The notes beneath the pieces are model-generated. The model saw nothing but the letters and a program-made list of their open reading frames with translations. It was not told the DNA's origin and searched no databases. This document shows, piece after piece, positions 19,176 to 63,705 of a stretch of DNA of 64,000 bases (positions within the stretch are counted from its first letter, which is position 1; each line of letters opens with the position of its first letter). The translations under genes were made by a program, and so were the position numbers. This DNA comes from a virus, in IMG/VR virus record IMGVR_UViG_3300032050_000011, one strand, 5' to 3'.

Positions 19176-20440
19176 ATGACTCAGTATCTATTTACCGAAG
19201 ATCAGATTCATCGCATGCTCATACTCTATGCGCTCTTGAATCTAAACATAGACTGGCGTGCGATCAAATACGGAGAGCTGCTATGCCACAACGACTACTA
19301 AGACTAAACGGCGTAATAAACTCACAGCTAGACATACGCGATATCATAGAGACCTATGCGCTGCTCAAAATAATCAGAAAACTAGAGATCTATGGCGATC
19401 ACGAGGCCTGGTATGACCACATATGAACTACTGCGTGTCGTACTCGCGGCCGCGCAGCTAGTTGCCACACTGGCAGCACCCTGGGTCGTCATCTATCTTG
19501 ATCGGAGACGCAATGGCGGACAATGAGCAAGTGCGCATATATTCGGCCGATGAGCTGCGAGCAATCTGCCCGATGCTTCGCATCCTGCATCAGCTCGGAT
19601 TAATCGGCCTGGTGAGTGTGCGCATGGCTGGCTATATCGATTGGGGCAGCGAAGGCTATATAATAACTAGTTATGACAGACTTTGAAGCACGCAAGACTA
19701 TCTGGGCCACTATCGGCAGACTCTTCGTCTGTGACGAGGTGACGATCTGGATTTTCTCAGCAGACGATATGATAGAGGCGAACCGGCTGCCTGATGGCAG
19801 CGGAAGCAGACTCTATTATTGCGGCGTAGCGCATGGTATAGAACCATGAGCTGGCGTGAGCTCATGGCGGGCGAAGATATGCGAGTGGTGCGAGATATGT
19901 TTCTCACGGTGCAGCGGCTGGATTTGCTCGATAGAGCCACGTCGTTTCAGGAGTTTGTGGACTGGATGGGAGCGCTGAGCTGGTATGCATCAACCTATAA
20001 GCCTAGATAATTTTGACGCGATGATGCGGCTGCTAGATGTGTTTAATGCTCTGGGTATTCTGGAGGGAATGGACTATCTGGTGGTCTGGGAGAAGAGGCC
20101 GAAGCTGACGCTGAATAGGCTGGGTAATTTTGAGTTTGTGAATCCTCAGGAAGTCTATGGCGCGAGTTTGAGTTTCTGGGACGACGCAGGTCGTGTGGTG
20201 GCCACGAGAAGATTTACGCTAGTGGAGCGGTTTGATGATGAGTATTGATGAAGAGTTCTATGTAGAGTTGAGCATGTGGTTTACGCTGTTGAGGCTGGGG
20301 TTGGCTGAGTTATGAGTAGAGTTGATCTAGAGCATCTGTTGTATATTCTAGAGTTCATAGATAAGCTGGATGTTATAAAGCACGAGATGAGTCAGTGTTC
20401 GAGTTGGCGAGGCGGCGGTTATTTCTGGCCACGCTGTTAA
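19176..20440 (+). CDS. chain of nine overlapping micro-ORFs (19176-19301, 19283-19426, 19413-19526, 19513-19686, 19673-19849, 19846-20010, 19985-20248, 20235-20315, 20312-20440)
   Basis: Hand translation; consecutive overlaps including ATGA, SD-like GGAG/GAGG before several starts; seven carry the KL-helix motif. Confidence 0.65.
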
Positions 20441-20690
20441 AAAATAATAAAAAAATATTATAAAAAAATTAGGGTACCGGTACCTCTGTGTTTGATCTAT
20501 TAGGGATCAGAGGCCAGTGGGCCCTATTTTTATGAAAAAGTGCTCTGCCAGAGTTCGCAGGGTACCAGAACCTGACCGGCTCGAAGTAAGGTTAGATGGT
20601 TTAGAGGTTACCCGGTCCTAACCGGTTAAATTTTTTTAAACCTGTTAAAACTGTTTTATAATTTTAAACCGGCTCGATATAGTCTACGAG
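20439..20690. other. non-coding block with A-tracts, palindromes and short repeats (candidate origin or genome end)
   Basis: A-tracts, GGTACCGGTACC (20473-20484), TAACCGGTTA (20619-20628), GGTTA and AACCKGTTA repeats. Confidence 0.35.
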
Positions 20691-20734
20691 GCCGGTGGCG
20701 GGCAGCGCCTGCGCAAGGGTTGCCGGTCTAGACT

Positions 20735-20811
20735 GACTCGATCTAATAACAACAAAGCAAGCATAAAGCTTGCCAACTAGGGGGTTATATGAATCAGCGT
20801 AAAGCAACTGT
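20735..20811 (+). repeat. 77-bp exact direct repeat (promoter, leader and gene start), copy 1
   Basis: Identical to 21765-21841. Confidence 0.9.
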
Positions 20812-21280
20812 GTCTGCGATCCTGTTCGTTCTCTCTGACAAAGGCATCAGCTACGAGTTCAACGGTCCTGTGAATGCGAGTGATCTCATGACCGAGAATG
20901 ATAGGTCTAAGACAGTAGACATGATCTGCAAGGGTTTTCTAGAAGGCGAGGTCGAGATGAGCGATGAAGGCAAGGCCAAGTATTTCACTCAGCCGACAGA
21001 GCTAAGAAAGTATGTAGTTGGCCTTGTTAACAACTGGCTACGTAAGGCGCCAGAACTAAACGGTGGCCAGAAGTATCAGGTGAAAAACCCTGGTTCTAGA
21101 GCAGGATCTGGAAACGAGACGATTAAAGCTCTTAAGCAACTGCTGACGATAACCGATGACCAGGACGCGAGACGAGCGATTGAAGCCGAGATCGCTAGCC
21201 AACTCGAGACCATCAAACCCAAAGTCGAGATAAACTTCGACGCCATCCCAGCTCACCTACGCCATCTGCTAGACAGATAG
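20789..21280 (+). CDS. early protein family A, paralog 1 (unknown function)
   Basis: GLVNNWLRK..ELNGG, KNPGSR, C-terminal IPAHLRHL. Confidence 0.85.
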   Translation: MNQRKATVSAILFVLSDKGISYEFNGPVNASDLMTENDRSKTVDMICKGFLEGEVEMSDEGKAKYFTQPTELRKYVVGLVNNWLRKAPELNGGQKYQVKNPGSRAGSGNETIKALKQLLTITDDQDARRAIEAEIASQLETIKPKVEINFDAIPAHLRHLLDR

Positions 21281-21287
21281 GTCAATC

Positions 21288-21764: not shown

Positions 21765-21841
21765 GACTCGATCTAATAACAACAAAGCAAGCATAAAGCT
21801 TGCCAACTAGGGGGTTATATGAATCAGCGTAAAGCAACTGT
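21765..21841 (+). repeat. 77-bp exact direct repeat, copy 2
   Basis: Identical to 20735-20811. Confidence 0.9.
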
Positions 21842-22310
21842 AGCAGCTATTGTTAGTGTACTAGCAGATCGCGGAGTGGCCTATGAGTTTGATGGTCCGG
21901 TCTCTGCAGCAGATATGATGACCAGTGCAGATAAAGAGAAGACAGTCGACATCATCTGCAAGGGTTTTATGAGTGGCGAGGTAGAGATGAGTGACGAGGG
22001 TAAGACCAAGTATTTCTCTCAGCCAGCAGAGCTAAGAAAGTATGTGGTTGGCCTTGTTAACAACTGGCTGCGTAAGGCCACCGAGCTGAATGGTGGCCAG
22101 AAGTATCAGGTGAAAAACCCTGGCAGTCGCAAAGGCTCTAGCAACGAGACAGTCAGAGCCCTTCGCCAGCTCTTGGCTATCACTAGCGATTCAGAAGCGA
22201 AGCAGGCTATCGAAGCCGAGATCGCTAGTCAGCTAGAAAGCCTTAAGCCAAAGGTCGAGATAAATAGTGATGCGATCCCAGCCCACCTAAGACATCTGAT
22301 TAAGTTCTAG
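21819..22310 (+). CDS. early protein family A, paralog 2
   Basis: Highly similar to 20789..21280. Confidence 0.85.
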   Translation: MNQRKATVAAIVSVLADRGVAYEFDGPVSAADMMTSADKEKTVDIICKGFMSGEVEMSDEGKTKYFSQPAELRKYVVGLVNNWLRKATELNGGQKYQVKNPGSRKGSSNETVRALRQLLAITSDSEAKQAIEAEIASQLESLKPKVEINSDAIPAHLRHLIKF

Positions 22311-23726: not shown

Positions 23727-23924
23727 GACACTGCTACGCCGCGGGAGCTCAGTTGGCCTGCCACTAGCCTGACATCCGGCAGGCGCGCGTGACCGACGTG
23801 AGCCAGAGCATGGGACGAGGCTGTTCGCGGCTAGACCCCCACCCTCTTCGCCTACACACGCCAGTAATATTAATCACTTGTATAACTCCAACAGATTCGA
23901 TATGACACCCGGAGAGGTGCATTC

Positions 23925-25282
23925 ATGGTGGTTTATGAAGCAGATTTAGAGCGCTCGCTAGTAGGTCTAGGCGGTCTAGCCTCTGAGAGCTCTAGTAGCA
24001 ATTCTAAAGTTGACGAAGTCGAAGCCTCGTCCCAGGCAGGTGAGGCTTCTAGCTCTCCAAGTAGGGCTGATACCTATGTAGAAGCAGACAAGCTCCTAGG
24101 TCTTCTGATTAGCTTTATGATGGGCAGAATACTGTCTAGACTAGGTATATAGTGAGGTAGTAAGTTATGTGTCTAGACTTTAGACTAACGATGCTAGTGC
24201 TTGATATGCTGCTGCGAATAGGCGTTGCAACAGGATCAGGGCGAGTTCAATCTCTATATAGCAAAAGGAGTAACCTCTTATGGAAGCAATCGAAATAATC
24301 AAAACCATCGCACTCCTATGTCAAATAACGGTAGCAACCTCCGGGGTAGCCAGAGACGCAAGGTTAAGCTCAGAAGAAGCTCAAAAAGACTGTCACAAAT
24401 ATTATGCCAAATGTATCCATAGCCCCAGAGCAAGAATGTCATACGATATGGCAGATGACCTCAGAAAGTGCATGGAAAAACGGTAAATCGCACGAACTGG
24501 AGTAGATTATGGTGGCAATAACTAGTAGAAAAACTACACGTCTAAGATACTGGATGAGCTGGGTTATGCTAGATATAGTAGCTAGGCTAGGTATAGGAGA
24601 TGAGTAGTATGACAGAGCTATGTGACTTTCAAGGAAAGGCTCTGCTGCGCTATCGGAGAAAGGTTATGGAGCGCTGCTTTTTAGTGGCGCTGTTTAAACT
24701 AGAACTGATAACTAGCAGTCAACTAGTAAGCATGGGCAATATAAGCTGGCTACGGGTAGGTAGACCCTATGGATAAGTTAACTGGATTTCAGGGGAGGAC
24801 TATGTGTCGCTATGAGAGAAAGATTGCGATGCGCTATTTTATAGTGGCGCTATTTAGACTAGAGATAATAACGGGCAGCGATCTAGAGGCTATAGCGAGC
24901 CGGAACTGCGAGCTCATAAATCACGAGATTATGTGGAGTTTTTTAAACTAGGGAGGTCTAGATGTTCTATGAGAAAAGAATTCAGCGAAAGGTCTCTAGA
25001 GAGCGAGATCAGCTAAACAAGATGACTAGGTGTATAAGCATCATGCTGGCTATGAGCAAGTTAGGCATTCTAAATAAGAGAGACTACAGCTCTTTTAGAG
25101 AACGAGTGCTCAGGCTATTCAACAGTGATTTCTAGCAGGCTGAACTAGACATGGACAGCGAAGGCGATCTACTACTGCTTAAAACTATATGGGGAATGGC
25201 ATTTGTTCTTGTAGTTTTTGAATTTAGAGGCTACAGGAAAGCAATCTGGATAAATACTCTGCATAAAATTAGTATAGTTTGA
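23925..25282 (+). CDS. cluster of micro-ORFs (23925-24152, 24167-24298, 24509-24607, 24600-24776, 24769-24951, 24962-25135, 25151-25282), all with the KL-helix motif
   Basis: Hand translation; SDs and overlaps; 24600 and 24769 are tandem paralogs. Confidence 0.65.
24280..24486 (+). CDS. small four-Cys protein, paralog of 42203..42373
   Basis: I(K/R)TI.LLC...C..YY.KC...L..C...R pattern. Confidence 0.7.
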   Translation: MEAIEIIKTIALLCQITVATSGVARDARLSSEEAQKDCHKYYAKCIHSPRARMSYDMADDLRKCMEKR

Positions 25283-26632: not shown

Positions 26633-27146
26633 ATGACTGACCGTATGGCTACATACATGCTCTGGCATTTTTTATGGCGGATAGAGATAATAGGCGACGA
26701 AGTTAACTGGAAACTAGGCAGCAGAGGAAGATACTGCGACTAGAAAAGAAGCGCTGGCTAAATGAATAAGCGTATAGAAGAAGGAGTTATCTATGCAGTA
26801 TGGCGCCTAGGCCTACTAGACTACTATGAGGCTAGAATTATGTTTAGTATTATAGCGGTAAGACGAATGTATGAAGACTGGGAATGAGGGCGCCGCGTAT
26901 CTAGAAGAGCGCATGATATTCCTGCTGCGCAAGCTAGGCGTTATAGATCACAGCGATGCCTTAATTCTGCTTAGTCTGCTGCTGCGGCACTTCTATGATG
27001 ATTACACTGAGGAGGACTAGCTGAGGAATAGAATGTATAATGGCAATGAATTTAAACGTTTAGCAAAAGTTCTGCTCAAGCTTGAAGTCATCAATGAATC
27101 TGCTTATTGGAGTATACTAATGAGCGGTGTAATAGTCTGGGAGTAA
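26633..27146 (+). CDS. four KL-helix micro-ORFs (26633-26743, 26762-26887, 26871-27020, 27033-27146)
   Basis: Hand translation: HFLWRIEII, YAVWRLGLL, FLLRKLGVI, KVLLKLEVI. Confidence 0.6.
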
Positions 27147-27365: not shown

Positions 27366-27676
27366 AGAAGCTAATTAGAGACAGAATTCCAGAGCTAGCA
27401 GCAGCCAGCGGACGACAACTAAATATTAGAGTGGCGGATGAGACAGAATTCAAAGCTCTATTACGCGAGAAGCTCATAGAAGAAGCACTAGAAGTAAAAG
27501 GTGCAACCGATACTGAGCTAGTAGAAGAGCTAGCGGATGTTTTAGAGGTTCTTGCTGCACTCTGTAAAGCTCATGGCCTAGAAGAAAGTGTGTTTGAAGT
27601 AGGTAAGAAGAAAGCCGAAGAGCGAGGTGTGTTTGATAAGCGAATTGTACTAGAGCCGGAGGCTAAGGATGTTTGA
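27362..27676 (+). CDS. MazG-like nucleotide pyrophosphohydrolase (PRA-PH-like)
   Basis: KLIRDRIPE, KLIEEALE, EELADVLEV, ERGVF. Confidence 0.8.
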   Translation: MKKLIRDRIPELAAASGRQLNIRVADETEFKALLREKLIEEALEVKGATDTELVEELADVLEVLAALCKAHGLEESVFEVGKKKAEERGVFDKRIVLEPEAKDV

Positions 27677-28628
27677 CGGCAAAAGTGAGAAAGCCAGATT
27701 AACTAGAGAAAAGCATGGCATGACCGAGTATCTGAAGCTAAAGCTAGAGCAAGAAGACTGGCATGGCGTAGCAGATGCAGCCATGGATATTCGTGAGCTG
27801 GTAGCCAAGCTAGATCTCTTAGAGGAGTTGGATGAGCAAGCCTAGTGTATACTATCGTGGCGGTATTCCATATAGCTATGATATGCATATAAAGAAACGC
27901 ATGTTTTATACGCTGTGGGGGCTTGGTTTATGCAGGTGAAGTATACTAGAATTGTGTTAGGTTTTTCTAGCATGCTAGATAAGCTAGAAATAAACAGACC
28001 TGACACTCTTGCTCTAGTTACTATGAGTTTTTTCTGGACGTATATGCTACATGATACATCTGCTAGATTTGGAGTCAGCGATGCTCTTGAACTTGAAGAC
28101 TAAGGCTTTCATATATAGGTTCTCTGCTATATTTGGACTGCGAATATATCTAGCTCAACGCGAAGAAGAAGACTATGTTAGACTACATAGAATGTATAGA
28201 CTTATAAGAGATATCATCGAGGATGAAGATACACGAGACGATAAGGCAGAGTTTGGTATACTGCGAGGCATCTGGCATGCAAGCAATGGTTTTACTGCTA
28301 TATATACTCGCAACATGAGCTTTAAAGATAGCATAGTGGCAAAGGTAAAGCATGCATTTGACTTCGACTATAATAGCTGGTAATAGCGAGCGCTCTTATA
28401 AAAAAGATCTGACGTGCATAAGAGAGCTGCATGACGTTCTCATAAGACTACAGATTCCTAGACCTCGTATAGCTTCATTATTTTATTATTGGAGACCAAT
28501 TGAAGAGCATTAATACTGAGTTTTTTATACTTATAGATTTTGTGCTTGCGGTTGATAGGCTAGGATTTGAGTGGGACGAGCACTATAAATTATATAGCTA
28601 TTGGCTAGCAAACATGAGGATGACATGA
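27669..28628 (+). CDS. small ORFs 27669-27845, 27832-27939, 27930-28103, 28051-28383, 28358-28513, 28500-28628
   Basis: Overlapping chain; the first has a DWHGVADAAMDIRE motif; most carry the KL-helix motif. Confidence 0.55.
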
Positions 28629-29254
28629 AGATAGCATGCATAAGTGATACTCACCAGCATCATAAGAAGCTAGTTATGCCAGCTTGCGACATGATTATTC
28701 ATGCAGGCGACTTCACCTATCATGGGACTCACGAAGAAGTCAAAAAGTTCTTGAACTGGTATGGTGAGCAGCGAGCTAAATATAAACTATTAATTTGCGG
28801 CAATCATGAGGTAGAGATTAGCAAACAGCCATTTCAGCTCTTGCAACAGATGTGCGAGAACGAAGGTGTTCAAATCCTACATAACACTCATACTGTAATA
28901 GAAGGACTAACTATATTTGGCAGTCCTTATTCTAAGCGATTTGGCAACTGGGCTTATATGAAAGATGAAGCTGAGCTAGCCGATATCTACAACAGTATCC
29001 TGCCAGATACTAATATACTTATAACACATGGTCCAGCCTATGGTCAACTCGACCTCTGTCCTGGTGGCAACGTTGGATCAAAGTCACTAGCAGCAGCTAT
29101 AGATAACTTGCCAAACCTAAAATTACACGTGACTGGACATATACATGAGAGTCGCGGTACTCTGCTTAGAAACGGAGTATTGACGGTTAATGCTGCGATC
29201 TGCGGTATTCCGTATACCGATATAGTTTCAAATCCTATAACAGTGGAGTTGTAG
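28625..29254 (+). CDS. calcineurin-like metallophosphoesterase
   Basis: SDTH, HAGD, GNHE, THGP, GHIHE; start moved to MKIACISD. Confidence 0.9.
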   Translation: MKIACISDTHQHHKKLVMPACDMIIHAGDFTYHGTHEEVKKFLNWYGEQRAKYKLLICGNHEVEISKQPFQLLQQMCENEGVQILHNTHTVIEGLTIFGSPYSKRFGNWAYMKDEAELADIYNSILPDTNILITHGPAYGQLDLCPGGNVGSKSLAAAIDNLPNLKLHVTGHIHESRGTLLRNGVLTVNAAICGIPYTDIVSNPITVEL

Positions 29255-30878
29255 TGAGTAGTTCAGAGCGTGCTATTATAGGTCTAGAGACGACGCTAGA
29301 TAAATTAGAGCTTATGGAAAGCTACCATGAACTATTTTTTATCTTTAATAAGTTAGCGAATTTCTGGCAATCACGAGGCTATGACGTATGAAAAAGAGAT
29401 TCAATGATAAAAATTGATTACTCTCACATGACTAGATGCATGAAATGCGACACCGAGATGAGTCTAGAGCATGATTTCAGAGACGCAATCTCTAACTATG
29501 CTTTCGTTTTCTGTCACTATTGTCTCAATGTTGGTCCATCTTCGCAGCATAGAAAAGCAGAAGAAGCCATAGTTGAAGCAACACACTTATGGAACATATA
29601 TAACATGTGTCTCTGGGCATCAGAGTACACTAATCAAGGAGAAAGATGAACTATTACGTTTACTATTCAGACGACACAGTTGGACATTCAATCAGAGAGT
29701 TTCAGGGCGAAGATGAAGCCCGGGAGTTTGCATTTGAGCTAGTTTCTAGTGATCCAGCGATCTCACTTAAGATTATTAAAGGTTTCGAGATAACTGACGA
29801 CGAATACGTATGAGAAGATTGCTTATAGCCAAATATTCAGCCTGCTATCTGATATCGCTGATATTTAGTGCTATATGCTTTAACCTTAGTTTTATGTTTA
29901 TAGCGCTCGGCGAGGTTATGCCTTGCTTGGGCGCTAGCTTTATGACCTATGTTTTTTATACAGCAGCGGAAGCCTGCTCTATAATGCTGGAGTTCTTGAT
30001 TGCCGGAGAATGAGATTAAACAGATGATATTACTACTCTGGCTCACACTAGCACTTGTTGCAGCGATAGCTTGCATAATTACTTTTATTACTATAACTAA
30101 TTGGTTATCTAATAATAAAAAAGTAAAATCTAGACTAGTTAAACTAAAGCTAATAGTTGTATTGATGAAACTTAAACTGCTAAAACCTGGAGATCTATTT
30201 TGGGACGTCTGATCGAGTACACAATAAGATATTTCTGTATCAATGCTGATTGCATAGCTGATGTAGAATCACTAGACGTCTTTGATTCTGCTTATGTTTC
30301 GGCTTATAATATGACTAAAATGACTCGCAAATTACTAGAAACAAATAACTGGGATCCAGACGACACTGATGTATACGACAACTACAATTGACATTAACAG
30401 ATTCGAAATTAAAACGGAGGTTATATGAAAACATATATTGTACTTTTTTTATTACTTTTTTTCTATTCATGCAGCTCATGTGAACATCTTAGGTCAGATC
30501 AGCAGCAAGTAGAAGAGCAGAGGCTTCTAGTAGAACCTCCAGGAAGTTTTAGATGATAGTCTACGTGTGGGTGGTGTTGATATGTCTTGTCTACCTAAAG
30601 ATAAACAAAAACTTAAAGTAGATTTTGTGTTCAACATCTACAGGACAATATTTGGAGTAGATTTTATGGATACTCTGCAGTCAGAGAATATAGTTAGTTT
30701 CGGATCTAAGGCATTTTTAATAGCAGTAAATGGTTTACCACAAAAGCGAGCACCTATAGATCCAGCTTCTTTTAACTTTAGAAAATATAGCTTTAATGAG
30801 CTAGAGGGCGGAGATTTCTTCAACTTATCAGAAGAAGAATACGTTTACCTATTAGCTAATTCAGTTGCTGTTAGATAA
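29254..30878 (+). CDS. small hypothetical ORFs (29254-29391, 29404-29649 Zn-ribbon, 29646-29813, 29810-30013 membrane, 30000-30212 membrane, 30200-30391, 30567-30878)
   Basis: ORF track plus hand translation. Confidence 0.5.
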
Positions 30879-31487: not shown

Positions 31488-31623
31488 ATGTCACAATCAC
31501 TGCAGTTCTTGCCTTAATTTTTATGTTTGTATTGACTGTAACTTCATCTATGGTCGTCAGATACGTGACTACAGCCAATAATTATAAGCTGCCAACCAAC
31601 CAGAACAGATTCGATAACAAGCT

Positions 31624-32147
31624 ATGAATCTAACTAGATATAGATTAGACAATGGTCAGACTCGCATGATGTTGATCATAGTTTTTCATAAATTAGGAGT
31701 GTCTGCTTATGAGCGCCCGAGCATATACATTTCAGAAGCGAAGAAATGGTATAGTAACGACTTATACTGATCATTGGTGCTTTTATCAAGTTGTATTACA
31801 TAATACAACTGTTTTTACACAGCACAGCGACAAGTCTATTACTCTTAATTCTGGCGGTTGGCGAACAGCAACGACTAAGACGGCTATAAACAGAGCATTT
31901 GACCTACTTAATATACCTGCTAGACTATGGCAGAAAAACTTCGAGTGGTTTGTTAGCTATGACGGAGCGACGTTTCCATTTGAAGACGGCATGCGGCTTG
32001 GCGGACGCCTATACTCTTTTGTTAATAAACTAGGTGTGTTAGATGACGACTCTATTTAACGATGAGTTGGTTGATCTAGCACTAGTTCTGCTAAAGCTAG
32101 ACATTATAACTTTCGAAGAATACTGGCATAACTTTAACATATATTAA
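31624..32147 (+). CDS. 31624-31770 micro-ORF, 31709-32059 hypothetical (ITLNSGGWRTATTK), 32043-32147 micro-ORF
   Basis: All three carry the KL-helix motif (VFHKLGV, FVNKLGVL, VLLKLDII). Confidence 0.6.
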
Positions 32148-32619
32148 GAGGCAATAATGAACAGTAATCAGATCTTCTATTTTGTCCTACTTATATTAAA
32201 TGCTATAACTGCAACAACAACAGATATCATTTTATTACGCTTTATAACTCTAATTTTTGTTGGTTTTTGCGCTGCAATGATTTCTTTAGAAAGAAAGTCA
32301 GATGATAGCTAGCCTTAACAGAATCGATATAATCATATGAAAAAGGGGAAAATATGGATGACAATCGACTTGGTGTGTACATTTGGACTATATTAAATGG
32401 CTGTGTAGTTCTTTATTTTATTAGAATTTTTAGCTAAGGAGGCATTATGTTAGTTTTTTCAGATGGAATGACTTTTGATACTTCTGGTGATCTAAGGATT
32501 ATTTGGGAAAAAGATGGCTTATATGTGTGTGGCAAGGGCATTCTAGTTCCTGTTGGTACCTACGACGAAGCACTACTAGTAATTGAAAGACTGGAATTTG
32601 CATAGATAAAAGGACTAAA

Positions 32620-33102
32620 ATGGATGATTTAAAGCTGATAAACGCTAGACTTCAAGAGCTGAATAAAGAGTTCAGAGAGCTTTCTGCTCTGAAGAAAGAA
32701 CTTCAAGATAAAAGTAAGGCCCAGACAGTAAAAGAGAAGTACGGCGATTTTAAGTTTATGATTAAGTCGCCAACATTAATTGAAGAAATAGACTTTGAAA
32801 AGCTTATGAAAGAGGCTGACTTACAGGTAGGTAGAAATGAGTTTGGACTTCCTGTCATTGCTTATGATTTTGGTAACGGCTTATCTTATCTATCAATTGT
32901 AAGAGATGAAAAAGAAGCAAAAGTGAGATTAGCAGTAGATGAGCTGCTTAAGATAGCTGACGCAGCAAAAGAAGATTTTAAGCTGAACAACAACAAGATA
33001 ACTGAGGCAACTGAGTTGTTTGTTAAGTTTGAGGAGGCGCTTGAATTCAACAGCAACGAAATTACGCGAGTTGTTACAGATTCAGAAAACCTATCTGAGT
33101 AA
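32620..33102 (+). CDS. coiled-coil hypothetical protein
   Basis: ORF track, SD AAGGA. Confidence 0.65.
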   Translation: MDDLKLINARLQELNKEFRELSALKKELQDKSKAQTVKEKYGDFKFMIKSPTLIEEIDFEKLMKEADLQVGRNEFGLPVIAYDFGNGLSYLSIVRDEKEAKVRLAVDELLKIADAAKEDFKLNNNKITEATELFVKFEEALEFNSNEITRVVTDSENLSE

Positions 33103-33309
33103 TATCTGTCAGCAGCTGCGCAAACCTGAATATCAAAACGATGCTATGAATAGCTTAAAGAAGTCAGTAGAGACTGAGCTGGAGTCTCTTTCCTTTCAGC
33201 TTACATGGGCAGAGTCTGATATGCGCGGTGAACTTATAATGATTTTGACCAAATTGAAAATATGGACCTAAACCGATTCGATATTTTGACAACATCATAA
33301 GGGGGTTTT

Positions 33310-34639: not shown

Positions 34640-34974
34640 GAATATTAGCAATAGACGACACACGTGAACTCACTGAGGCTCATGTGCTGGTAAGAAATTT
34701 TAATGAAGGCATAAGGCAGCTAGAGCGAAATGGTCCATGGGATCTGCTACTACTTGATCATGATCTGGCTTCTTTTGATTCAGATGGCAGAGAAAAAACA
34801 GGCTATGATATCATGTGCTTTTTAGAAGAAAATCTGCACCTTGCTCCTAAAAAGATCGAGTGTGTTAGCGCTAATCCAGTAGGCAGATCAAGAATTACAG
34901 CTATGATAGTGAGGTTAAATGAAAAAATTAAACAGGCATCAGGCGATGGCGACAATATACAGGATATTCTATAA
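34636..34974 (+). CDS. receiver-like (cyclic-phosphate-processing type) domain protein
   Basis: LAIDDTR, LLLDHDL, TGYDIM, SANPVG. Confidence 0.7.
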   Translation: MRILAIDDTRELTEAHVLVRNFNEGIRQLERNGPWDLLLLDHDLASFDSDGREKTGYDIMCFLEENLHLAPKKIECVSANPVGRSRITAMIVRLNEKIKQASGDGDNIQDIL

Positions 34975-35592
34975 ATTAGATATTATAACTTTTGAAGAAC
35001 TAGACACGAGTGTAGATGGACTTCAAGTACTCATGCTGCATGACTGGTTCAAAGGAGATAGCTAGTGTTTTCACTTATTTTTCTAGCTGCTACAATTATT
35101 TATTTTTTTAAGTTTCATCATAAAGTATTGGATAGGCTTGGACTATCTGAACGAGATGATAATCTTATGGCCATTGGACTATTTTCAGGTGTAGTGCTTA
35201 GAAACGCCGCTATATTTCTTGAAGCCTTATTTGTCAGTGGCACAATATTTATGGGTGAACTATTAATTGCTCTTATCTTTATTTTTCTAATAAAGTCTAG
35301 ATACGATAAGTTATAATATAACAGGCTCGATTTCATATCATGAAAAACAAAAGGGGTTTGTATGTTTAGAACAGAAGTCGGTGAGTATAAAGGCCATAAG
35401 ACTATCTCCATATTTAATGATGATAAGTTTGTTGTTAGTTTTGGGATTAGCAAGGCGAAAGCAATACTAGAGGTTTTAGACGACGTAAAAGAGTTTGTCG
35501 AAAAAAATCAAACTAATAGTTCTTCAAAGATTAATTTTGATTCTCTTACTGAAGAGCAGAAAAAAGCCATTATGCAGTTCATAAAGGGTTAA
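34919..35592 (+). CDS. 34919-35065 KL-helix micro-ORF, 35065-35316 membrane protein, 35362-35592 hypothetical
   Basis: IFYKLDIITFEE matches the 32043 motif; EYKGH..I..FG..KAK pattern in 35362. Confidence 0.6.
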
Positions 35593-42726: not shown

Positions 42727-45027
42727 ATGACTAACAAGATTACAGAAGAAGTCATTAATGGTGTTATAGCTGAGTCTAATATAAACACAATATCTGTATG
42801 TAAGTTCTTTCGCTATTGTCTAAAAGAAGATTTTAAAGAAAATATATCTTTTTTAAAAGCAAAAGGCGCAGACATAGAGTTCTTAAAAGATTCTCTAGAC
42901 AATCATATAGAGGTAGAAGACGCACAACTTGAGATATTTAGTCAAGTTAAAACACTTATGAACAGATCATCTCAACTGGAACCAGCAATGACTCCAGAGT
43001 TGAGCAAAGTATTTGATCTTATGAAAAAAGCTGCAAGCAAAGATCAGCGACCAATGTATTTTGAAGATATGATAAATGCCATACATGTGCTAGGAAAGTC
43101 TGATCCTGACATGTACATAATCTACTTCTTAAAAAAATCTGGCTACAAGCATGATCCAGAATCTTCGCCTGGCGCACGCGGTAAATATAAGTTTATAGGA
43201 GAACTATGCGATGACTTAAATGCCAGAGCAAGCAAGAAACTCATAGATCCACTAATTGGTAGACGAAAAGAAGTAGAGCGGATGGTAGAAATTCTAGCTC
43301 ATTATAAGAAGAAAAACCCTATGCTTGTTGGTTTACCAGGTGTTGGTAAAACAGCAGTAGTCGAGGGTCTAGCCTCTATGATTGAGCAGAATTTAGTACC
43401 AGAGTCACTTAAAAAATCAAGAATATACTCATTGAATGTAGGCAACATATTGGCTGGTTCAAAGTTTCGTGGTGAATTTGAAGACAAGGTCAAGGGTGTA
43501 CTGCAAGATCTTAAGACTATGAAAGAAAAAGAAGGCATTAACGCCATACTATTCATAGACGAAGTGCATCAGGTGATGGGCGCAGGCGCAGGTGGAAGCA
43601 AGGAAGGTGTGGATCTAGCTAACATGATTAAGCCTGGTCTTGCCAATGGCGATCTTAGCTGTATCGGTGCAACAACAGATGATGAATACAACCAGAAGAT
43701 TCTTAAAGATAAAGCACTTATGCGCAGATTTCAGGTAGTAAAAATTGAAGAGCCTTCAGCAGAAGAGACTCTTCGCATACTAGAACAGGGAATAAAGCCC
43801 GTACTAGAGTCTTATCACGGAGTTAAATACTCTAGAGAAGTTCTAGAGCGAATAGTCGATCTATCAAAACAGTATGTAACCAGTCAGTTTTTTCCGGACA
43901 AGGCCATATCTATAGCCGACTCAGTCGGTGCTAGAATTAAAACTACACTTAAGGCGGAAAGAGTTGATGCTACAGTAGACGACGTAGAGGAGATAGTTTC
44001 TTCCATTACTGGAACGCCGGTGTCTGCTTTCAAAAAAACTCGTAGTAAAGAAACTTATGTCGATATAGCTAAAAATATAAAATCTACTATTTTTGGTCAG
44101 GATTCGGCGATTGATCGAGTAACTGAGCAGGTCGAATTAGCCAAAGCTGGATTGCGAGACGAGGGTCAGCCGATAGGTTCTTTTTTATTGCTAGGCCCAA
44201 CAGGAACAGGGAAGACCGAGTTGGCAAAGCAGATAGCTGCACAAACTGACTCGCATTTCTTTCAGCTCAATATGTCAGAATTCTCTGAAGAGCACGCCGT
44301 TGCAAAGTTGTTCGGAGCTCCTCCAGGCTATGAGGGACACGATCAAGGTGGTGTACTCACCAATGAGATAATGAAGTATCCGCACACTATCTTGCTTCTT
44401 GATGAGATTGAAAAGGCAAATAAGAAAGTCTATGACGCATTATTAGGCATCATTGACGGTGCGCAGATGACAGATGGCAGAGATAATAAGGTAGATTTTG
44501 GCAATGTGCTTATACTAATGACATCGAATGCTGGAGCTTCACAGGCCGCTAGAACTAAAAAACCGGTTGGAATAACTAGCGATGATGACGATGCAAAGAA
44601 TGCAAAAGCAAAGAGTATGGATGGCGTATTAAAGGATACATTTAGCCCGGAATTTAGAAACAAACTTACAGGCGTTGTATTGTTTGATTCATTGCAAAAA
44701 GATGTTATCATTAAAATAGTAGAAAAATTTATAAAAGTTGCACAAGTAAAGCTAATGGCAAAAGGCATAAAATTAACTGCAAGTAAAAAGGCAAAAGAAT
44801 TCATGGCAGACAAAGGCTATGATCCAGAGATGGGTGCTAGGCCTATTAAAAAGCTAATAGATGATCTTATAGTCAAACCTCTTGTTAAACCACTTCTTAA
44901 AAAAGAAGTTGAAGCTGGTGATACAGTAAAAGTTATATTAGTAGATAACGAGATTAAACTTGAATTCATAAAACCAAAGCAGCAAGAGGAGGTGGCGGAT
45001 GCAGTTGACCCTGGCACAGCAGGATAG
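42727..45027 (+). CDS. clpA: ATP-dependent Clp protease ATP-binding subunit (ClpA-like)
   Basis: Two AAA+ modules (GLPGVGKT, LFIDEVH; GPTGTGKT, DEIEKA), no ClpB middle domain, VGI docking loop. Confidence 0.9.
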   Translation: MTNKITEEVINGVIAESNINTISVCKFFRYCLKEDFKENISFLKAKGADIEFLKDSLDNHIEVEDAQLEIFSQVKTLMNRSSQLEPAMTPELSKVFDLMKKAASKDQRPMYFEDMINAIHVLGKSDPDMYIIYFLKKSGYKHDPESSPGARGKYKFIGELCDDLNARASKKLIDPLIGRRKEVERMVEILAHYKKKNPMLVGLPGVGKTAVVEGLASMIEQNLVPESLKKSRIYSLNVGNILAGSKFRGEFEDKVKGVLQDLKTMKEKEGINAILFIDEVHQVMGAGAGGSKEGVDLANMIKPGLANGDLSCIGATTDDEYNQKILKDKALMRRFQVVKIEEPSAEETLRILEQGIKPVLESYHGVKYSREVLERIVDLSKQYVTSQFFPDKAISIADSVGARIKTTLKAERVDATVDDVEEIVSSITGTPVSAFKKTRSKETYVDIAKNIKSTIFGQDSAIDRVTEQVELAKAGLRDEGQPIGSFLLLGPTGTGKTELAKQIAAQTDSHFFQLNMSEFSEEHAVAKLFGAPPGYEGHDQGGVLTNEIMKYPHTILLLDEIEKANKKVYDALLGIIDGAQMTDGRDNKVDFGNVLILMTSNAGASQAARTKKPVGITSDDDDAKNAKAKSMDGVLKDTFSPEFRNKLTGVVLFDSLQKDVIIKIVEKFIKVAQVKLMAKGIKLTASKKAKEFMADKGYDPEMGARPIKKLIDDLIVKPLVKPLLKKEVEAGDTVKVILVDNEIKLEFIKPKQQEEVADAVDPGTAG

Positions 45028-45398
45028 CGTTCGCTACTATAGATTAGTAGCTTTTTTGGTAAAACTTGAATTAGAAATAGAGATGACTCCAGCGATGGAA
45101 TATGTACTCTACAATACTATTAACTGGAGCCTAGCGCCAGAGTAAGGAAAAGATGCTTAATCTTTATAGTTTTGGAGAGACATCAAAAAAGATACTGGCT
45201 GCTTTTATGTACATAAGTTATTCATTAAATATGTTAGGCATTTTTATGTTTGGCTATAGTATAATTATTGCAATAGCGATTCAGTTTTTAGTAGATTTTA
45301 CGGTAGTCGCAGTTCTTTCCTATAGAGAAACTTTACAGGAAGTAGACTACCACATAAAGTTAAAAGCTACAAAAAGTGTATATAGATTATTAAAATAA
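44999..45398 (+). CDS. 44999-45145 KL-helix micro-ORF and 45153-45398 membrane protein
   Basis: VAFLVKLEL; SYSLNMLGI. Confidence 0.55.
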
Positions 45399-49654: not shown

Positions 49655-50904
49655 TGAAAGAGCTCGATATTTTGCAGGCTATATCTGATGAGAGCAGTAA
49701 GAATGGTAAATTTGCTTTACTTAAAAAATATTCTAGCGATCAGCGTCTAGCTCAACTACTAGACGCTGCGCTTAACTACAAAAGAATCTTCTACATAAAT
49801 AAAATGGATCTAGGTCAGTCATTGATTAATGAAGGCGTAGCTTTCCCAGACCTACATGATGAATTCATGCAGTTACTTTCTAGACTAGAAAAGCGCGAAA
49901 TAACTGGCAATGAAGCTAGAATAGAGGTTGTATTCTTTCTAATCAAGTGCTCCAAGCAGCAGCAAGACTGGTATCTTAAAATTTTAAGAAAAGATCTTAA
50001 GGCGGGTTTCAGCGCTGAAACAGCAGCAGAAGCTGGGTTTGACATACCGCTATTTGACGTAATGTTGGCCAAAGACGGAAAATCTTGCAAGAACCTGAAA
50101 GATATAATTTCTAAAGGCGTCTATGCTAGTCCTAAGTTTGATGGCTACAGATGCCTAGCTGTAATAAATGAAGGCGAAGTAACTCTCTACTCTAGGGCTG
50201 GAACAGAGTTTCACAACTTTCCATCCATAGTAGAGTCATTAAAGCGCAGCTTTCCTAGTGGTCAACATGTGTTTGATGGTGAGATTATGTCTGATGACTT
50301 TCAGTCTATGCAGAAGTCAGCGTTTGCCAGCAAGCGAGGGACTGTGGTCGGTGACGTCAAGTACTATGTATTTGGATATGTTCCCTATCAAGAATGGGAC
50401 AGCAAGCAGTTCAAGCTAAAAACAAAAGAAAGGCTAGATATATTAGGTAATCTTCAAAAATCATTTGAGCCTAACGTTGTAATGGTGTCACAAAAATTCA
50501 TAAACTCACTAGACGAAGCTCTTAAATTTGAGCGAGACTGCTTGAGCTACGGCTATGAAGGCGCAATGCTACTGCCAGATATTCCATATTATCTTGGCAA
50601 AAAATCTAATAAACTACTTAAATTAAAGACTATGCAGTCACAGGATTGCACTGTTAGAGGTTTTTATGAAGGCGAAGCAGGCACTAGAAATCAAGGCACA
50701 CTTGGTGGTCTAGAATTAATCCAAGAGAATGGCATTGCCTGCAGATGCGGCACTGGCTTCTCTGACGAAGATAGACTATATATCTGGAGCAACGGTCAAG
50801 AATTTATAGGGCGAATAGCAGAGATAAAATACCAGGAGCTAACTGAGGACGGAGTCATGCGTTTTCCTGTTTTTATGAGATGGCGTGATGATAAGGCTAA
50901 GTAA
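49654..50904 (+). CDS. ATP-dependent DNA ligase
   Basis: KFDG, FDGE, YEGAM, LLKLK, RFP motifs. Confidence 0.95.
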   Translation: MKELDILQAISDESSKNGKFALLKKYSSDQRLAQLLDAALNYKRIFYINKMDLGQSLINEGVAFPDLHDEFMQLLSRLEKREITGNEARIEVVFFLIKCSKQQQDWYLKILRKDLKAGFSAETAAEAGFDIPLFDVMLAKDGKSCKNLKDIISKGVYASPKFDGYRCLAVINEGEVTLYSRAGTEFHNFPSIVESLKRSFPSGQHVFDGEIMSDDFQSMQKSAFASKRGTVVGDVKYYVFGYVPYQEWDSKQFKLKTKERLDILGNLQKSFEPNVVMVSQKFINSLDEALKFERDCLSYGYEGAMLLPDIPYYLGKKSNKLLKLKTMQSQDCTVRGFYEGEAGTRNQGTLGGLELIQENGIACRCGTGFSDEDRLYIWSNGQEFIGRIAEIKYQELTEDGVMRFPVFMRWRDDKAK

Positions 50905-50905
50905 T

Positions 50906-51804
50906 ATGAATCAAGAGGTAGACGCTGTAGATGTATGCCTGAACTTAATTTTGGTTCTTCAACGACTAAATCTAGGCGTACGTCACGTTAGAAGAACACC
51001 TATGGCATTTGAGTTAGCCATACTATTAGACGAAGGTAAAACAGCTCTAGACGCATACAGAAAAGAGCACAGCATAGGTTCAAGTTGGTGGGGATAAGCA
51101 CTTTTATTATGACGTTTAATTTAAAATCCGCTGACAGGATGCAGATGTATCTTGAAAGTGCCATAATAATGGATTATCTTGAGTTTTTAGCTAATATAAA
51201 CATCATATATATCGATCGTGCATTGCTAGAAGATATTGGAGAAGGGAGTCGATTGCATGTCTACATTGAATAACAAGATAGAGTGCTTAAAAAGACTTAT
51301 AAAGCTAGATCATCATCATGAGCTTATGTACTGGATGGTTGAGTCTAGGCTAGCTGCTGCCGATATAATGAGCTCGAAGAACAAATCAGATCAGCATATA
51401 GCAGAAGTAATTTATCTAAACTTACAGCAAGCTAAAATCGATGAAAAGATAATTCTACTAGACTATGAATGGACCATACTGCCTAGAGAACATATCAAGA
51501 TAATGGTTGTCACCGAGAAAGAGTCACAGACATTCATTTACGAAGCTTAAAATAAAATTTGTATAATATCATTATTGCATGATGCAATAATAACGTTTTA
51601 GGAGGAAGCATGGTTTCTGTTTCACGAAAAAAGAAAAAAGTACCAAAATCATTTGAGCAAGCAACTAGAATTCTGCTTGAATGGCAATTTGAACAAAATC
51701 TAAAAGAAAAAATAGATGGCTTTTATCAAAAAAAACTTAAAGAATTAGATCAAGAAATTGCTCAACTTGAAATTGAAAATAACAATAAAAACTTAAACAA
51801 ATAA
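50906..51804 (+). CDS. small hypothetical ORFs (50906-51097, 51109-51273, about 51257-51550, 51610-51804)
   Basis: ORF track; the first two carry the KL-helix motif. Confidence 0.55.
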
Positions 51805-60169: not shown

Positions 60170-60511
60170 ATGACAGCTAATTATAAAAGAAAAAGACTTA
60201 TTGAAAAAAATAGCTCGGATAGGGAGACGACTGCGATTCGTAAGCAGCTCAATTCCTCAGAGAGAATTAAGACAAAAAATGAGATTAAAAAAAATATAAG
60301 CGATAGAATACAAATAGCTCAAGAACTAAGATGGGAGTTCGAGGTGAAGCAGTCATCAGAATGCCATCATAATGAAATATTTGGCCCACACGTGCATATG
60401 CAAACAATGCTAGCACTGCTGGATGTAGGTGATTTCGATCTATATCGCTGCACATGCCTAGACACTTACAAACTATCCGATGAACAGATATTGAAAATGT
60501 TTGGCCTATAA
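60170..60511 (+). CDS. hypothetical protein
   Basis: ORF track. Confidence 0.55.
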   Translation: MTANYKRKRLIEKNSSDRETTAIRKQLNSSERIKTKNEIKKNISDRIQIAQELRWEFEVKQSSECHHNEIFGPHVHMQTMLALLDVGDFDLYRCTCLDTYKLSDEQILKMFGL

Positions 60512-60566
60512 TTACTCTGTAATTTCATAAACGTATAATATCTTTAAGATTATAAAAAGAGGTAGT

Positions 60567-61583
60567 ATGCGACTTGGCTTTGCCTGCAAATATATGCATG
60601 ATATTGAGCTTCCAGCAAAAGAGCTAGAGGCTATCGAGTCACGACTTAACTGTCGTACGACCACGTTTACGTGGGCAAATAAACAGAAGCGCTCTGTCGC
60701 AGAGGAGCGATTGCACTCAATACTAGATCATAACCTAGCTGCACTCGGCGGAATTATAGACTATGTGGGAACACTGGATCCTGAATTGCGTATGTTTCGC
60801 ATCAGCAGTGATATATGCCCGCTATACACACATCCAAATTGGATCAGCTTCTGGAAAAGCTGCGAACTACAATCGAAGCTTGAAAAAGAATTAACGCATA
60901 TAGGTGGCAAGACGCGGGATCTAGGCATCAAGGTTTCCTTTCACCCAGCTCAGTTTACTGTGCTAGCGAGTGACAAGGACGATGTGGTAGACAGGTCACT
61001 AGAAGAGTTTGAATATCATGCGGATATGGCTCGATGGCTTGGCTACGGCAAATCTTTTCAAGATGGCTGCAAGATAAATATACATATTGGTGGTAAAGGC
61101 GGTACCTCTACGCTTATAAAAAACCTAGGTCGACTATCTGATGTGGCTAGAAATCTAATCACAATAGAAAATGACGAGTTTAGTTATAGCCTAGATGAGA
61201 CAATTAAACTTAAACAACATGTCGCATTAGTTTTAGATGTACACCATCACTGGATAAACACAGGCAAATATATCGAACCTGACTCAGACAGCGTTAAGCA
61301 GGTTATAGAAAGTTGGCGAGGTATAAGACCTAGTATGCACTATAGTATATCTAAACAATCAGTTTTTGCCGATCATTCGTCAGATGAAAAACCTGATCTT
61401 GCACTACTATTAAGTGCTGGCTACAAAAAAACAGCTTTAAGAGCTCATTCAGACGACTACTGGAATCTGGCATGCAATGACTGGATCTCGGGCTTCAGAA
61501 AAGACTTTGACATAATGTGTGAAAGCAAGAGTAAGAATTTAGCCTCTATAAAATTGTTAGATTATTTGCGAGGTAAACAATGA
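60567..61583 (+). CDS. uvsE: UV damage endonuclease
   Basis: RLGFAC, FRISS, HPAQF, NIHIGG, IENDE, LDVHHH, RAHSD. Confidence 0.9.
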   Translation: MRLGFACKYMHDIELPAKELEAIESRLNCRTTTFTWANKQKRSVAEERLHSILDHNLAALGGIIDYVGTLDPELRMFRISSDICPLYTHPNWISFWKSCELQSKLEKELTHIGGKTRDLGIKVSFHPAQFTVLASDKDDVVDRSLEEFEYHADMARWLGYGKSFQDGCKINIHIGGKGGTSTLIKNLGRLSDVARNLITIENDEFSYSLDETIKLKQHVALVLDVHHHWINTGKYIEPDSDSVKQVIESWRGIRPSMHYSISKQSVFADHSSDEKPDLALLLSAGYKKTALRAHSDDYWNLACNDWISGFRKDFDIMCESKSKNLASIKLLDYLRGKQ

Positions 61584-63705
61584 ACGCAATTATTCTAGGT
61601 TGGCTTTTCATAGGATCAGTCGTAAATCTTTTCATACATTACAGAAACGCTGATAAATTTGGCACTGCACTTATGGGTGGACAGCTCAACATACTTGTAT
61701 TTCTACTTATGGGCTTCACTAATCATATACTTTGGCCACTCGCTCTCTACACCGAACTCACTAGAAAACTCTGACAGATTCGATATTAATACATGAGAGT
61801 TAGTGATAAAATTCAGATAGTTGAAAATTTTTTGGCATGCTTGGACAAACTTGTTGAATTTACTCAAGTAGAATCAGATACTGGCATTGAGACTAGTGAT
61901 CTAGTTCTAGTTCTAAGAATTGGAATTTATATAGATTAAATGCTAGAACAGATTAACCCCGCTGTTCTATCATCGGGCACAACTAATAGGATTTGGTTGT
62001 GCCCTCTTTATAAGAGGAATATGCTGCCAGAAGGATCGAAGTCCATAATAAAACTAATATCTTTTCTAGATAATCTAGATTTATTGATTTTTTATAGCGG
62101 AAATTCAGAAACACTCATGTGGGAGTTTGCTACTCCCGGAACAAAAATAGGTCAAAAACTGGAGGTACTAGATGCTAAGCTCTACACAGATGAAATATAT
62201 CGAGCTAGAGAAGAAGAAAGAGGCTTACAAGAAGTTCTTGGAAGAATTAAAGGAGGCTACTCAGGCAGTAGTGAATGAAGTCGGAGTCGGCGGTCATTTT
62301 CAAGATGCTGAAGGTACCGTTTATCAGGTTGAAGAATCTGACGGGAAATTCGTGTACTTTGACAGATTCGAAATTAAACGCACGAGACGTAGTGGCGAAA
62401 AATCTGGCACACTATCTCTAACAAAAGCAAAAGAACTAGGTTATGGAGTAGCATAGCTTGTTAAATTTCAAACGTTTTAGGAGTTACCATGTCTATTTTT
62501 AAAGATCGTGTCTATGAAGAGATGGATGACATATCCAGGCTTATTGAGCCATATCAATGTGGTCTGAACGAAGACCTATCGAAGTTTCCAGATAGGCTAG
62601 AAATTGATCCAGATCAGCTAGAGTCTACATGGGGAACAAACGTGCGTGATATAGTTAGAAGATATGCAAAATCTGCGGAGCTCAATGCTCTTTCAGAAAA
62701 CGTCTGGGACCTAGATCCTAATTTCTTTCAGTTTGAGATAGTTAACTCAGAAGGTGAGCAAACAGATTCACTGCGTTACAATTTTGCTACTAAAGAAATA
62801 GACGGCAAAATTTTTCTAGTGAAGAAAATGTTCTGCGTTGAAGACGACGGTGTCATGAACATAATTATTAAAAATGTAGAAAATAAACTTAGCATGTATA
62901 ATCGTCACGCTGATTCAAAAAGAATAAATGAGATTGCTGATCTATTCAATGCAGAAGAAGTAAAGCAGAAAAGATCAGCCAGTAAAAAAATGCGTTGTCT
63001 AAGAAATCATATAGTTGGTCTGATTAAGTCTAAAAAGCTAGACATACGAGATGCAGAGCTTGCCGCTAGATTCAGCAACTGGATAGTGCTCTATGCTAAT
63101 GATGGAAGTTTACCTGCGCTTGCAAATATTACGAAGCTAAAAATTATGACTCATCAGAATAAACCTATATATTCAATTGATGAAAGGAGCACCGTATGAA
63201 GTTTGATGATCGCCTAAAGTCTTTAACAAGTAGTATTGATCCAGGTGCACCTCTTATAAGACTAAAGATGTCTAGTGATTTGAAGACAATAAGAGCAGAG
63301 TCGATGCCGTGGTTTCCTCCTGCCGACGATCCTAGTTTTCTAGGTCGATTAATCACTGAGTGTGTTAGACGTACTCAGACTATTAATGGCTATACGATAG
63401 ATTATGCTGCAACTAAGTCAAATATAACTGAGTCAGTTGTAGATAATTTTTCTCATCTATATACAAGGGTATCTACGAATAAAGAACCAACTAGAACCAA
63501 GACATTTAAGGCAATTAAGCAGCTGCAGCGAAAAGCACGTCGCGAAGAAGATATATTCGAAGACTTTTTTGCTATTGCAGAATACAATGATCAGGTTACT
63601 AGAGAAGACAGTATTACAAGTGTGAGCAATCAAGTTCATCGTAAAAATATACTCTATTTAATAGAGTCACTAGTGAGGAAGCATGGAAGTGAGAACAATA
63701 ACTAA
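61580..63705 (+). CDS. hypothetical proteins (61580-61774 membrane, 61793-61939, 61940-62278, 62172-62456, 62489-63199, 63196-63705)
   Basis: ORF track plus hand translation. Confidence 0.55.

Follow-up and report, generated by a model that had tools for sequence, protein, structure and literature searches.

A 64,000-nucleotide stretch of the IMG/VR virus record IMGVR_UViG_3300032050_000011 (the window; positions 81,008-145,007 of the 165,836-bp record) carries an array of small genes whose predicted products share a single ten-residue motif, [LFM]-Phi-x-[LTVIM]-L-x-[KR]-L-[GDE]-[LIV], where Phi denotes a hydrophobic residue. By the sequence comparisons below, these motif-bearing open reading frames (ORFs) are real small genes with a precise protein motif that recurs throughout a clade of related phages, and the motif is under protein-level constraint and purifying selection. 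Together they make up an undescribed gene array, with no described family or system to match it. We propose that the motif is a helix-then-strand docking element that would plug many variable peptides into one predicted hub, a reading to which we give somewhat better than even chances. A docking motif on fast-evolving microproteins had been suggested in a sequence-only reading of the window. The motif itself is borne out by codon use, its single copy per protein, its strict Leu positions, purifying selection and the clade-wide arrays; the shared partner we infer, as that reading did.

Every one of the 23 peptides quoted in the sequence-only reading lies in the frame of the ORF named for it. 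When genes were called blind to the motif at 19-37 kb, 12 of the 29 small genes matched Phi-x-[KR]-L-[GDE]-Phi, as compared with a mean of 0.55 matches (maximum 5 in 2000) in residue shuffles of the same genes. The tetranucleotide CTAG is about 2-2.6-fold over-represented throughout the window, contrary to bacterial DNA, which usually avoids it, and CTA is the commonest Leu codon and is dominant before G/D/E. Stricter controls were applied because of this excess. A profile trained without this genome, on a set that did include a few orthologs of the first-operon genes from L003 and L004, found 22 matches on the + strand and none on the - strand at 19.1-37 kb, whereas order-3, order-4 and order-5 Markov sequences that keep the CTAG bias gave means of 0.65-0.75 matches and never more than 4. 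Genome-wide, 19 matches at a score of at least 12 were observed versus 1-3 in reversed, complemented or trimer-shuffled DNA. The possibility that the motif is equally frequent in shuffled sequence did not hold, as the shuffle, Markov and strand controls all fell far below the observed counts. De novo expectation-maximization on the motif-blind set reached the same motif, with a log-likelihood barely above those of shuffles (141 versus 126-137); since this margin is slim, the case rests on the remaining tests.

The consensus was obtained from leave-one-position-out scans, in which the K/R position is numbered 0. Leu is found in 82% at -2 and 89% at +1, K/R in 77% at 0 (Arg 40%, Gln 2%), G/D/E in 79% at +2 (Gly 45%, Asp 17%, Glu 17%) and L/V/I in 93% at +3, where there are almost no aromatics (Phe about 1%). 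Positions outside the search pattern were also informative, namely -6 (hydrophobic in 90%), -5 (70%) and -3 (L/T/V/M, with Thr in 25%). The core of the motif as first written is retained, but the last position listed there, +4, is at most weakly conserved (Ile 21%, Leu 10%), and the conserved positions -6, -5 and -3 were not listed. The motif is amphipathic, with a mean hydrophobicity of 0.8, and its hydrophobic face, which takes up six of the ten positions, is wider than usual and has the basic residue at its edge. The median net charge is +2, and a transmembrane-like stretch was detected in only 6 of 292 members. Hydrophobic residues at -6, -2, +1 and +3 satisfy the spacing Phi-x3-Phi-x2-Phi-x-Phi. 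A helix that ends in Leu-x-x-Leu-Gly-Phi forms a Schellman C-cap. All 185 proteins examined for it contain the motif in a single copy, the location of which in the chain is free: its placement may be N-terminal, central or C-terminal, as first noted, and 26 of the 185 end within three residues past it. A continuation into Phi-[STDN], the signature of a second helix, is present in 33 of 153 (about 22%), with Glu at +8 in 11%.

Codon use at the motif positions of 221 members matched or came close to that of the ORFs containing them (of ten tests, the lowest p was about 0.013; Leu at +1, p = 0.59; Arg at 0, 0.98; Lys at 0, 0.15; Gly at +2, 0.25), which indicates that the constraint acts on the protein. 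Pooled over ortholog pairs, the ratio of nonsynonymous to synonymous substitution rates (dN/dS) was 0.21 in the motif and 0.28 in the flanks, both biased downward as the pairs were picked among motif-bearing orthologs of at least 50% identity. The value for the flanks indicates that they are under selection too. Within ortholog families, K/R and G/D/E interchange. About 407 non-redundant motif microproteins were collected in the clade, some background matches included, and with the motif masked they fell into 358 flank groups, 326 of which are singletons. Most members from the same genome are no more alike, or barely more, than members from different genomes, and tandem or local duplication was seen in G002 and in the window at 24600/24769. 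The members are thus largely unrelated, as had been claimed, except that the 24600 and 24769 genes are recent paralogs. The composition of the flanks lies between those of off-frame translation and established genes, with Arg, Trp and His near random and Asp, Glu and Cys near real genes, consistent with a recent origin of the flanks.

The genome is that of a myovirus. The - strand up to 19 kb of the window holds the tail sheath and head-tail genes, and a + strand block of mostly small genes follows, which further encodes ClpS/ClpA, two ClpP-like genes, sigma-70-type factors and a vWA-metallopeptidase. The closest isolate by tail sheath is the 170-kb Myxococcus phage Mx1 (OR576727.2; 31% identity); the 95 kb of Mx1 examined showed no motif array and three scattered matches at a score of at least 12, which is the background level. 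Relatives were collected via a 163-aa paralog family that flanks the arrays, which gave some 150 related loci and 17 genomes, complete or partial; the related myoviruses are 165-177 kb in size. A search of related phages had been proposed in the sequence-only reading, and arrays were found clade-wide, in most relatives. The richest genomes contain 31, 26, 23, 19, 15 and 13 motif ORFs at a score of at least 12, where several of these, not including the window's genome, fed the profile training set; the poorest contain 0-3, with a background of 1-3. The arrays keep to the coding strand even where inverted (L010, L107, L117), and 26 matches in G002 lie on a single strand inside 5 kb. In a tree of a neighboring head-tail protein, motif-rich genomes are on both sides of the midpoint root, and one subclade (G007, L339, L332, L302 and L316; support 100/98, with the long-branch L334 adjoining) has almost no motif ORFs. 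In L302 and L316, only about 300 bp separate the conserved element described below from the first 163-aa gene. Because motif-rich genomes flank the root and one subclade is nearly motif-free, the array is probably ancestral to the clade and dispensable.

Two further observations were made across the clade. The match of L027-type sheath genes in G018, G024, G027, G028 and G029 is split within open frames of 860-960 aa, which suggests that some 200 aa have been inserted, perhaps as an intein or an extra domain. There is also a second multi-copy family of small proteins, Cys-rich (L159; G001 116375-116972), which most clade genomes carry in their early region; one of its branches is absent from four motif-poor genomes and from the window's genome.

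Members in the window, all on the + strand, are given here with their profile scores, where at least 9 is a good score and 5-9 a weak one. The first operon begins with a degenerate 41-aa member (19176..19301), at which place relatives have a clear motif. It is followed by members of 47 aa (19283..19426; 14.1; ortholog in L002, dN/dS 0.33), 57 aa (19513..19686; 9.5; Q at position 0; orthologs in L002, L004 and L091) and 54 aa (19846..20010; 14.6), the last from a five-member ortholog family in which K/R and G/D/E interchange. Next is an 87-aa member (19985..20248; 8.3) with a degenerate N-terminal motif and a conserved C-terminal part, which was overlooked in the sequence-only reading and had no Atlas match. 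The 26-aa member after it (20235..20315; 17.9) has a dN/dS of 0.17 versus L091, and a 42-aa member (20312..20440; 11.5) is coupled to this preceding gene by ATGA. The second cluster contains a 75-aa member with the motif at its extreme C-terminus (23925..24152; 15.3), a weak 43-aa member (24167..24298; 5.1), a 32-aa member (24509..24607; 12.5), the paralogous pair of 55-58 aa (24600..24776; 14.0) and 60 aa (24769..24951; 14.0), and a 57-aa member (24962..25135; 10.6). Farther on are a weak and likewise overlooked 36-aa member (26633..26743; 7.6) and members of 41 aa (26762..26887; 8.4), 49 aa (26871..27020; 20.3, the top score) and 37 aa (27033..27146; 16.7). They are followed by a 58-aa member with a C-terminal motif (27669..27845; 10.0), a 35-aa member with G at position 0 (27832..27939; 13.3), a 57-aa member (27930..28103; 13.5), a weak 42-aa member (28500..28628; 6.4), a 45-aa member (29254..29391; 10.2) and a 70-aa member with a hydrophobic N-terminus (30000..30212; 9.2).

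The 31.6-kb cluster starts with a 48-aa member (31624..31770; 14.9) and a 116-aa protein (31709..32059; 13.3) in which the motif is added at the C-terminus of a Kyano_Gp96 domain (PF23790, E 3.6e-10). The 34-aa member behind it (32043..32147; 15.9) has a 10-residue stretch in common with a 48-aa member (34919..35065; 7.5). Between these two are a weak 52-aa member (32447..32605; 8.0) and a weak 76-aa candidate (33041..33271; 6.6), both with C-terminal motifs, and an 83-aa hydrophobic protein with a weak motif (35065..35316; 5.7) is an uncertain member. A 48-aa member downstream of clpA (44999..45145; 12.5), a 69-aa member (50888..51097; 9.9) and a weak 85-aa member (62021..62278; 7.8; 112 aa if started from 61940) lie apart. 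Many members overlap or abut their neighbors. The figure of about 35 microproteins proposed earlier is best taken as an upper bound, since 22 small ORFs score at least 9 and about ten more score 5-9 or are degenerate. The earlier range extended to 62278; members are concentrated in 19.2-35.3 kb with only three beyond. As for the motif being appended to larger proteins, the 116-aa ORF is a clear fusion, but proteins above 90 aa are not enriched (1 match versus 2.1 expected).

A conserved non-coding element (TAGTATAAT ... CCGCG ... GGGGCCCC; 19080..19133, +) lies at the strand switch and heads the first motif operon, probably as a promoter or leader. The same element is found ahead of the motif array in L002, L003, L004, L008, L011, L020, L024, L091, L092, L266-268 and L272. 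Six of the eight ORFs in the window's first operon carry the motif, one is degenerate and one is without it; in L020, fourteen consecutive ORFs behind the element carry it and the operon consists almost wholly of motif genes. The element was also considered as a genome end and rejected, as contig ends do not cluster there. A promoter-like sequence, AAC[AC]G[AG][CT]TCGA, is present upstream of the second motif cluster (23890..23901, +) and of the 31.6-kb cluster (31604..31615, +), with further sites in the window at 20667, 23137, 25301, 30396, 33271, 35320, 41827, 47764 and 57071. There are 12 copies in the genome, all on the + strand, 19 on the + strand of G001 and at most 4 in other genomes, and a phage sigma factor probably uses it as a promoter. 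Its translation, N-R-L-D-I, mimics the motif and hence gives a few false matches. Host-type sigma-70 promoters were not above chance in 19-36 kb (35 versus 34.1), and no Rfam family except tRNA was found in 19-37 kb. A 229-aa sigma-70-type factor is encoded at 17308-17997 (-), with regions 1.2, 2 and 3 matched and region 4 not; blastp detected it in only G000, G001, G002 and G022 of 18 genomes or fragments. That the members are early effectors, as they were labeled in the sequence-only reading, we infer only from their position and the promoter-like element.

We propose that the motif microproteins are an accessory repertoire of the phage, in which a ten-residue docking motif is set within young and rapidly replaced flanks. 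Residues -7 to +1 would form a short amphipathic helix with a Schellman-type C-cap at G/D/E, and the last hydrophobic residue would continue as a short strand. The four anchors at -6, -2, +1 and +3 may fit Leu-shaped pockets of one shared partner, which could be a near-universal protein of the phage or a conserved machine of the host. From this hub the variable flanks would be displayed, each with its own target, and together they would serve host take-over or counter-defense as a library of adaptors or displayed peptides. New members would arise by tandem duplication of a motif-bearing unit with subsequent flank replacement, and their loss would be free. The single motif, strict Leu, free position, fusion to a folded domain at 31709 and selected flanks all fit a constant plug with variable business ends; the fold, the single partner, the adaptor role and early expression are predictions of this model. 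A bolder version, which we consider possible and put forward tentatively, is that of a natural peptide-display operon. Peptides of 25-90 aa from near-random sequence would each be provided with the constant docking helix for one hub of host or phage origin (for instance a protease, a chaperone or RNA polymerase), and the phage could thereby quickly try out and exchange inhibitors or degradation adaptors directed at host defenses.

Candidates for the hub were sought by gene content. No full-length match for either ClpA or ClpS was found in 17 other clade genomes or large fragments, and the complete genome G001, with about 30 motif genes, is without ClpA. These two, which had been put forward earlier as possible partners, are excluded as the general hub because motif-rich genomes lack both. 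ClpP-like, MoxR-type ATPase/vWA and chaperonin-like genes are near-universal, motif-poor genomes included, and profiling therefore speaks neither for nor against them. In the window, the ClpP-like genes are at 47161 and 53825 and the MoxR-type gene at 54778, paired with 57104; the ORFs at 47801, 51257, 54488, 59061 and 62489 are near-universal as well. The sole gene of this genome that tracks motif presence is a 174-aa ORF upstream of a DnaB-like helicase (genome 43,049-43,573; L359:150-671; outside the window). Motif-poor G007 has an unrelated 300-aa gene in its stead, and G033 lacks it as well; helicase and primase are kept in both. This co-loss probably represents one evolutionary event and is a lead only, host proteins and near-universal phage genes being just as plausible as the hub. 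The model of the 174-aa protein is helical (predicted local distance difference test score, pLDDT, of 79), with a best Z of 8.1 to a designed helical protein. The 163-aa paralog was modeled as a two-part helical protein (pLDDT 88) with no clear PDB match (best Z 5.3). Its family, of 161-170 aa with invariant N-W-x-R-K and P-G-x-R, is present in 3-5 copies in nearly every clade genome, motif-poor ones included, and in the window it is interleaved with the arrays (20789-21280, 21819-22310, 23200-23685 and 35745-36257). Prediction of a complex of the 174-aa protein, the 163-aa protein and two copies of the 26871 member returned "no answer" with a score of 0.00, neither for nor against binding. 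No conserved clade family scored consistently as a core phage protein with the same helix. A 97-aa near-universal ORF (54488-54781) has an N-terminal segment resembling the RNA polymerase-binding part of SutA (PF20661, E 0.0014, below the cut-off), and the ORF at 33310-33540 has an F-L-x-x-G-G-K-I-E-V stretch similar to it.

Several points weigh against a docking motif with one hub. Gene-content profiling of the clade yields no convincing phage hub, the 174-aa candidate rests on one motif-poor clade, and the dN/dS ratios carry the downward bias noted above. A helix end of the form Leu-x-x-Leu-Gly-Phi is moreover a very common structural element, as exemplified by weak profile matches to the V-ATPase chains 7qsu/7qss, so convergence on a stable mini-fold could also have produced the motif. 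If the motif were instead a self-association helix, members would homo- or hetero-oligomerize into mixed bundles or a coat displaying the flanks, with no need for a separate hub. The wide hydrophobic face (6 of 10 positions), the small Thr at -3 in 25%, the apparent co-transcription of overlapping or abutting members and the failure of profiling to bring up a phage hub would all suit such a helix. Yet there is no heptad repeat, merely one short helix ending in a cap, and both the lone members (1-4 per genome in some) and the fusion to a folded domain suit a plug better than a polymer; we regard self-association as unlikely. We hold much the same opinion of a tag for fate or sorting, be it a degron, a stabilizing chaperone-binding tag or a packaging or localization address. 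One copy per protein in free position would be expected of a tag, the clade encodes ClpP-like proteases, a chaperonin-like protein and a MoxR-type ATPase/vWA-metallopeptidase pair, and the L-x-K of the motif recurs where the major capsid protein begins, in its likely head-maturation site. However, Leu comes after K/R in the motif, where the capsid site has Ala/Ser, and Arg occupies position 0 in 40%; the genome has a separate candidate cargo tag, N-G-Q-W-x-L-x-K; T4-type packaging tags are N-terminal whereas the motif floats; and motif-rich genomes exist without ClpA and ClpS.

An in-plane anchor recruiting diverse peptides to the inner membrane would account for the amphipathicity, the mean hydrophobicity of 0.8, the basic edge residue and the median net charge of +2. 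Membrane-targeting helices such as those of MinD and FtsA tolerate and even favor Phe/Trp and vary in spacing, whereas the present motif strongly favors Leu at -2 and +1, admits next to no aromatics at +3 and keeps a fixed spacing. Such a Leu-strict, fixed choice of residues is more specific than an anchor needs, which makes this explanation improbable. Still less probable is that the members form a single microprotein family, very old and hyper-diverged and akin to the SHOCT helical hairpin, in which the motif is just the folding core, kept for stability with no shared ligand. It would explain why about 22% (33/153) continue with Phi-[STDN] as at the start of a second helix, and it agrees with the tandem duplication in G002 and at 24600/24769, but most members are without this signature, 14% end right after the motif, Pfam finds no SHOCT match, and flanks are barely more alike within than between genomes. 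That the motif merely reflects biased DNA (CTAG/AAGCTAG) or the in-frame translation of a DNA element has a vanishingly small probability in our judgment. The CTAG enrichment with CTA as the commonest Leu codon and the few false matches from N-R-L-D-I could be cited for it, and it is ruled out by the Markov controls (0.7 versus 22 observed), codon use and the reversed and shuffled DNA controls; in addition, codons are degenerate across genomes of 35-50% GC, orthologs swap K/R and G/D/E, and dN/dS is well below 1.

No block of unexplained phage genes is larger than that of the small early genes, which are commonly regarded as orphans unrelated to one another. In the present clade, hundreds of small phage genes, most of them under annotation cut-offs, share one testable handle, and a common partner, once named, could explain how as many as about 30 genes in each genome of a widespread uncultured clade work.

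The sequence-only reading knew of no described family that matches, and database comparisons agree. Among 110 members searched against Pfam and PHROGs, no family was matched by more than one member, with 25 Pfam families listed at E<=1; a PDB sequence profile search gave only three weak matches (E 0.27-0.91). A profile search of 1.84 billion representative proteins returned one clade member and two long repeat proteins, one of them from a eukaryotic chromosome-scale contig, which score by adding up weak repeats. Neither the motif nor the array is described in the literature searched, which left out most subscription papers. Known short motifs were considered and rejected. The beta-clamp-binding motif, QL[SD]LF, has a first Gln and a large hydrophobic pair at the end, whereas position 0 is K/R with Gln in 2% and +4 is not conserved. 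The IGF/IGL loop that docks to ClpP has an invariant Gly in [LIV]-G-[FL], whereas +2 is Gly in only 45% and Phe at +3 is about 1%. The SHOCT domain (PF09851) consists of two helices in 30 aa, has a conserved Glu and lies at the C-terminus in 89% of proteins (PMC3581485). It is like the motif in its short amphipathic helix ending at a conserved Gly, and in a minority of members a second helix resembling that of SHOCT follows; it was rejected given no Pfam match among the 110 members, the second-helix signature in 33/153, Glu at +8 in 11% and the free position.

The T4 internal proteins IPI, IPII and IPIII are hypervariable small proteins with an N-terminal tag, the capsid targeting sequence, which is cleaved in the head. 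They resemble the members as hypervariable small phage proteins with one short tag, and theirs is a counter-defense role. An N-terminal capsid tag of the T4 type was rejected since the motif floats among N-terminal, central and C-terminal positions, and it is without the Ala/Ser cleavage context of the clade capsid, in which Ala follows L-x-K where the motif has Leu. The other candidate cargo tag of this genome, N-G-Q-W-x-L-x-K, occurs near the N-terminus of unrelated proteins (18057-18689 (-), 38284-38907 and 59583-60143) and is probably a second, separate shared tag for head cargo. Outside the window (genome 10969-12534 and 8314-9762), the probable prohead protease has in its C-terminal part a copy of the segment with which the major capsid protein begins (K-A-L-x-A-G-Y-G-G), and a four-Cys finger comes after it; this holds for every clade genome that was aligned.

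The class 1a nuclear export signal (NES) follows the pattern Phi-x3-Phi-x2-Phi-x-Phi. It binds the CRM1 groove as a helix and then a short strand (PMC5358978). The spacing is the same as in the motif, and many unrelated proteins plug such a helix-strand peptide into one groove; the NES is eukaryotic, however, bacteriophages have no CRM1, and the motif adds K/R at 0 and G/D/E at +2, so the analogy is structural only. CRM1 cargo itself was rejected, the genome being that of a tailed bacteriophage with sigma-70-type factors and Shine-Dalgarno signals. To our knowledge, the proteins of the SPO1 host-takeover module have no common motif and different targets. That module has 26 genes, and its Gp53 is ClpC adaptor-like and competes with MecA for the ClpC N-terminal domain (PMC6873191). 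It is similar in being a phage gene cluster thought to remodel host machines, and it illustrates that a phage protein can be a protease adaptor. Gp53 differs as a single protein with no homology found to motif members, while the window's first-operon genes almost all share the motif. The F-box and SOCS/BC-box families of poxviruses and giant viruses are expanded, with a constant docking motif and variable target-binding parts that serve eukaryotic ubiquitin systems; we know of no equivalent in phages. The constant docking motif with variable parts is the likeness to the array, and the eukaryotic setting and folded substrate domains are the difference. By analogy, the array would work most like a motif-tagged viral adaptor or effector repertoire. 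If the adaptor reading is true, the array would be a bacterial-virus counterpart of these F-box/BC-box families, and it would offer a tractable example of genes that are born with a docking site already built in.

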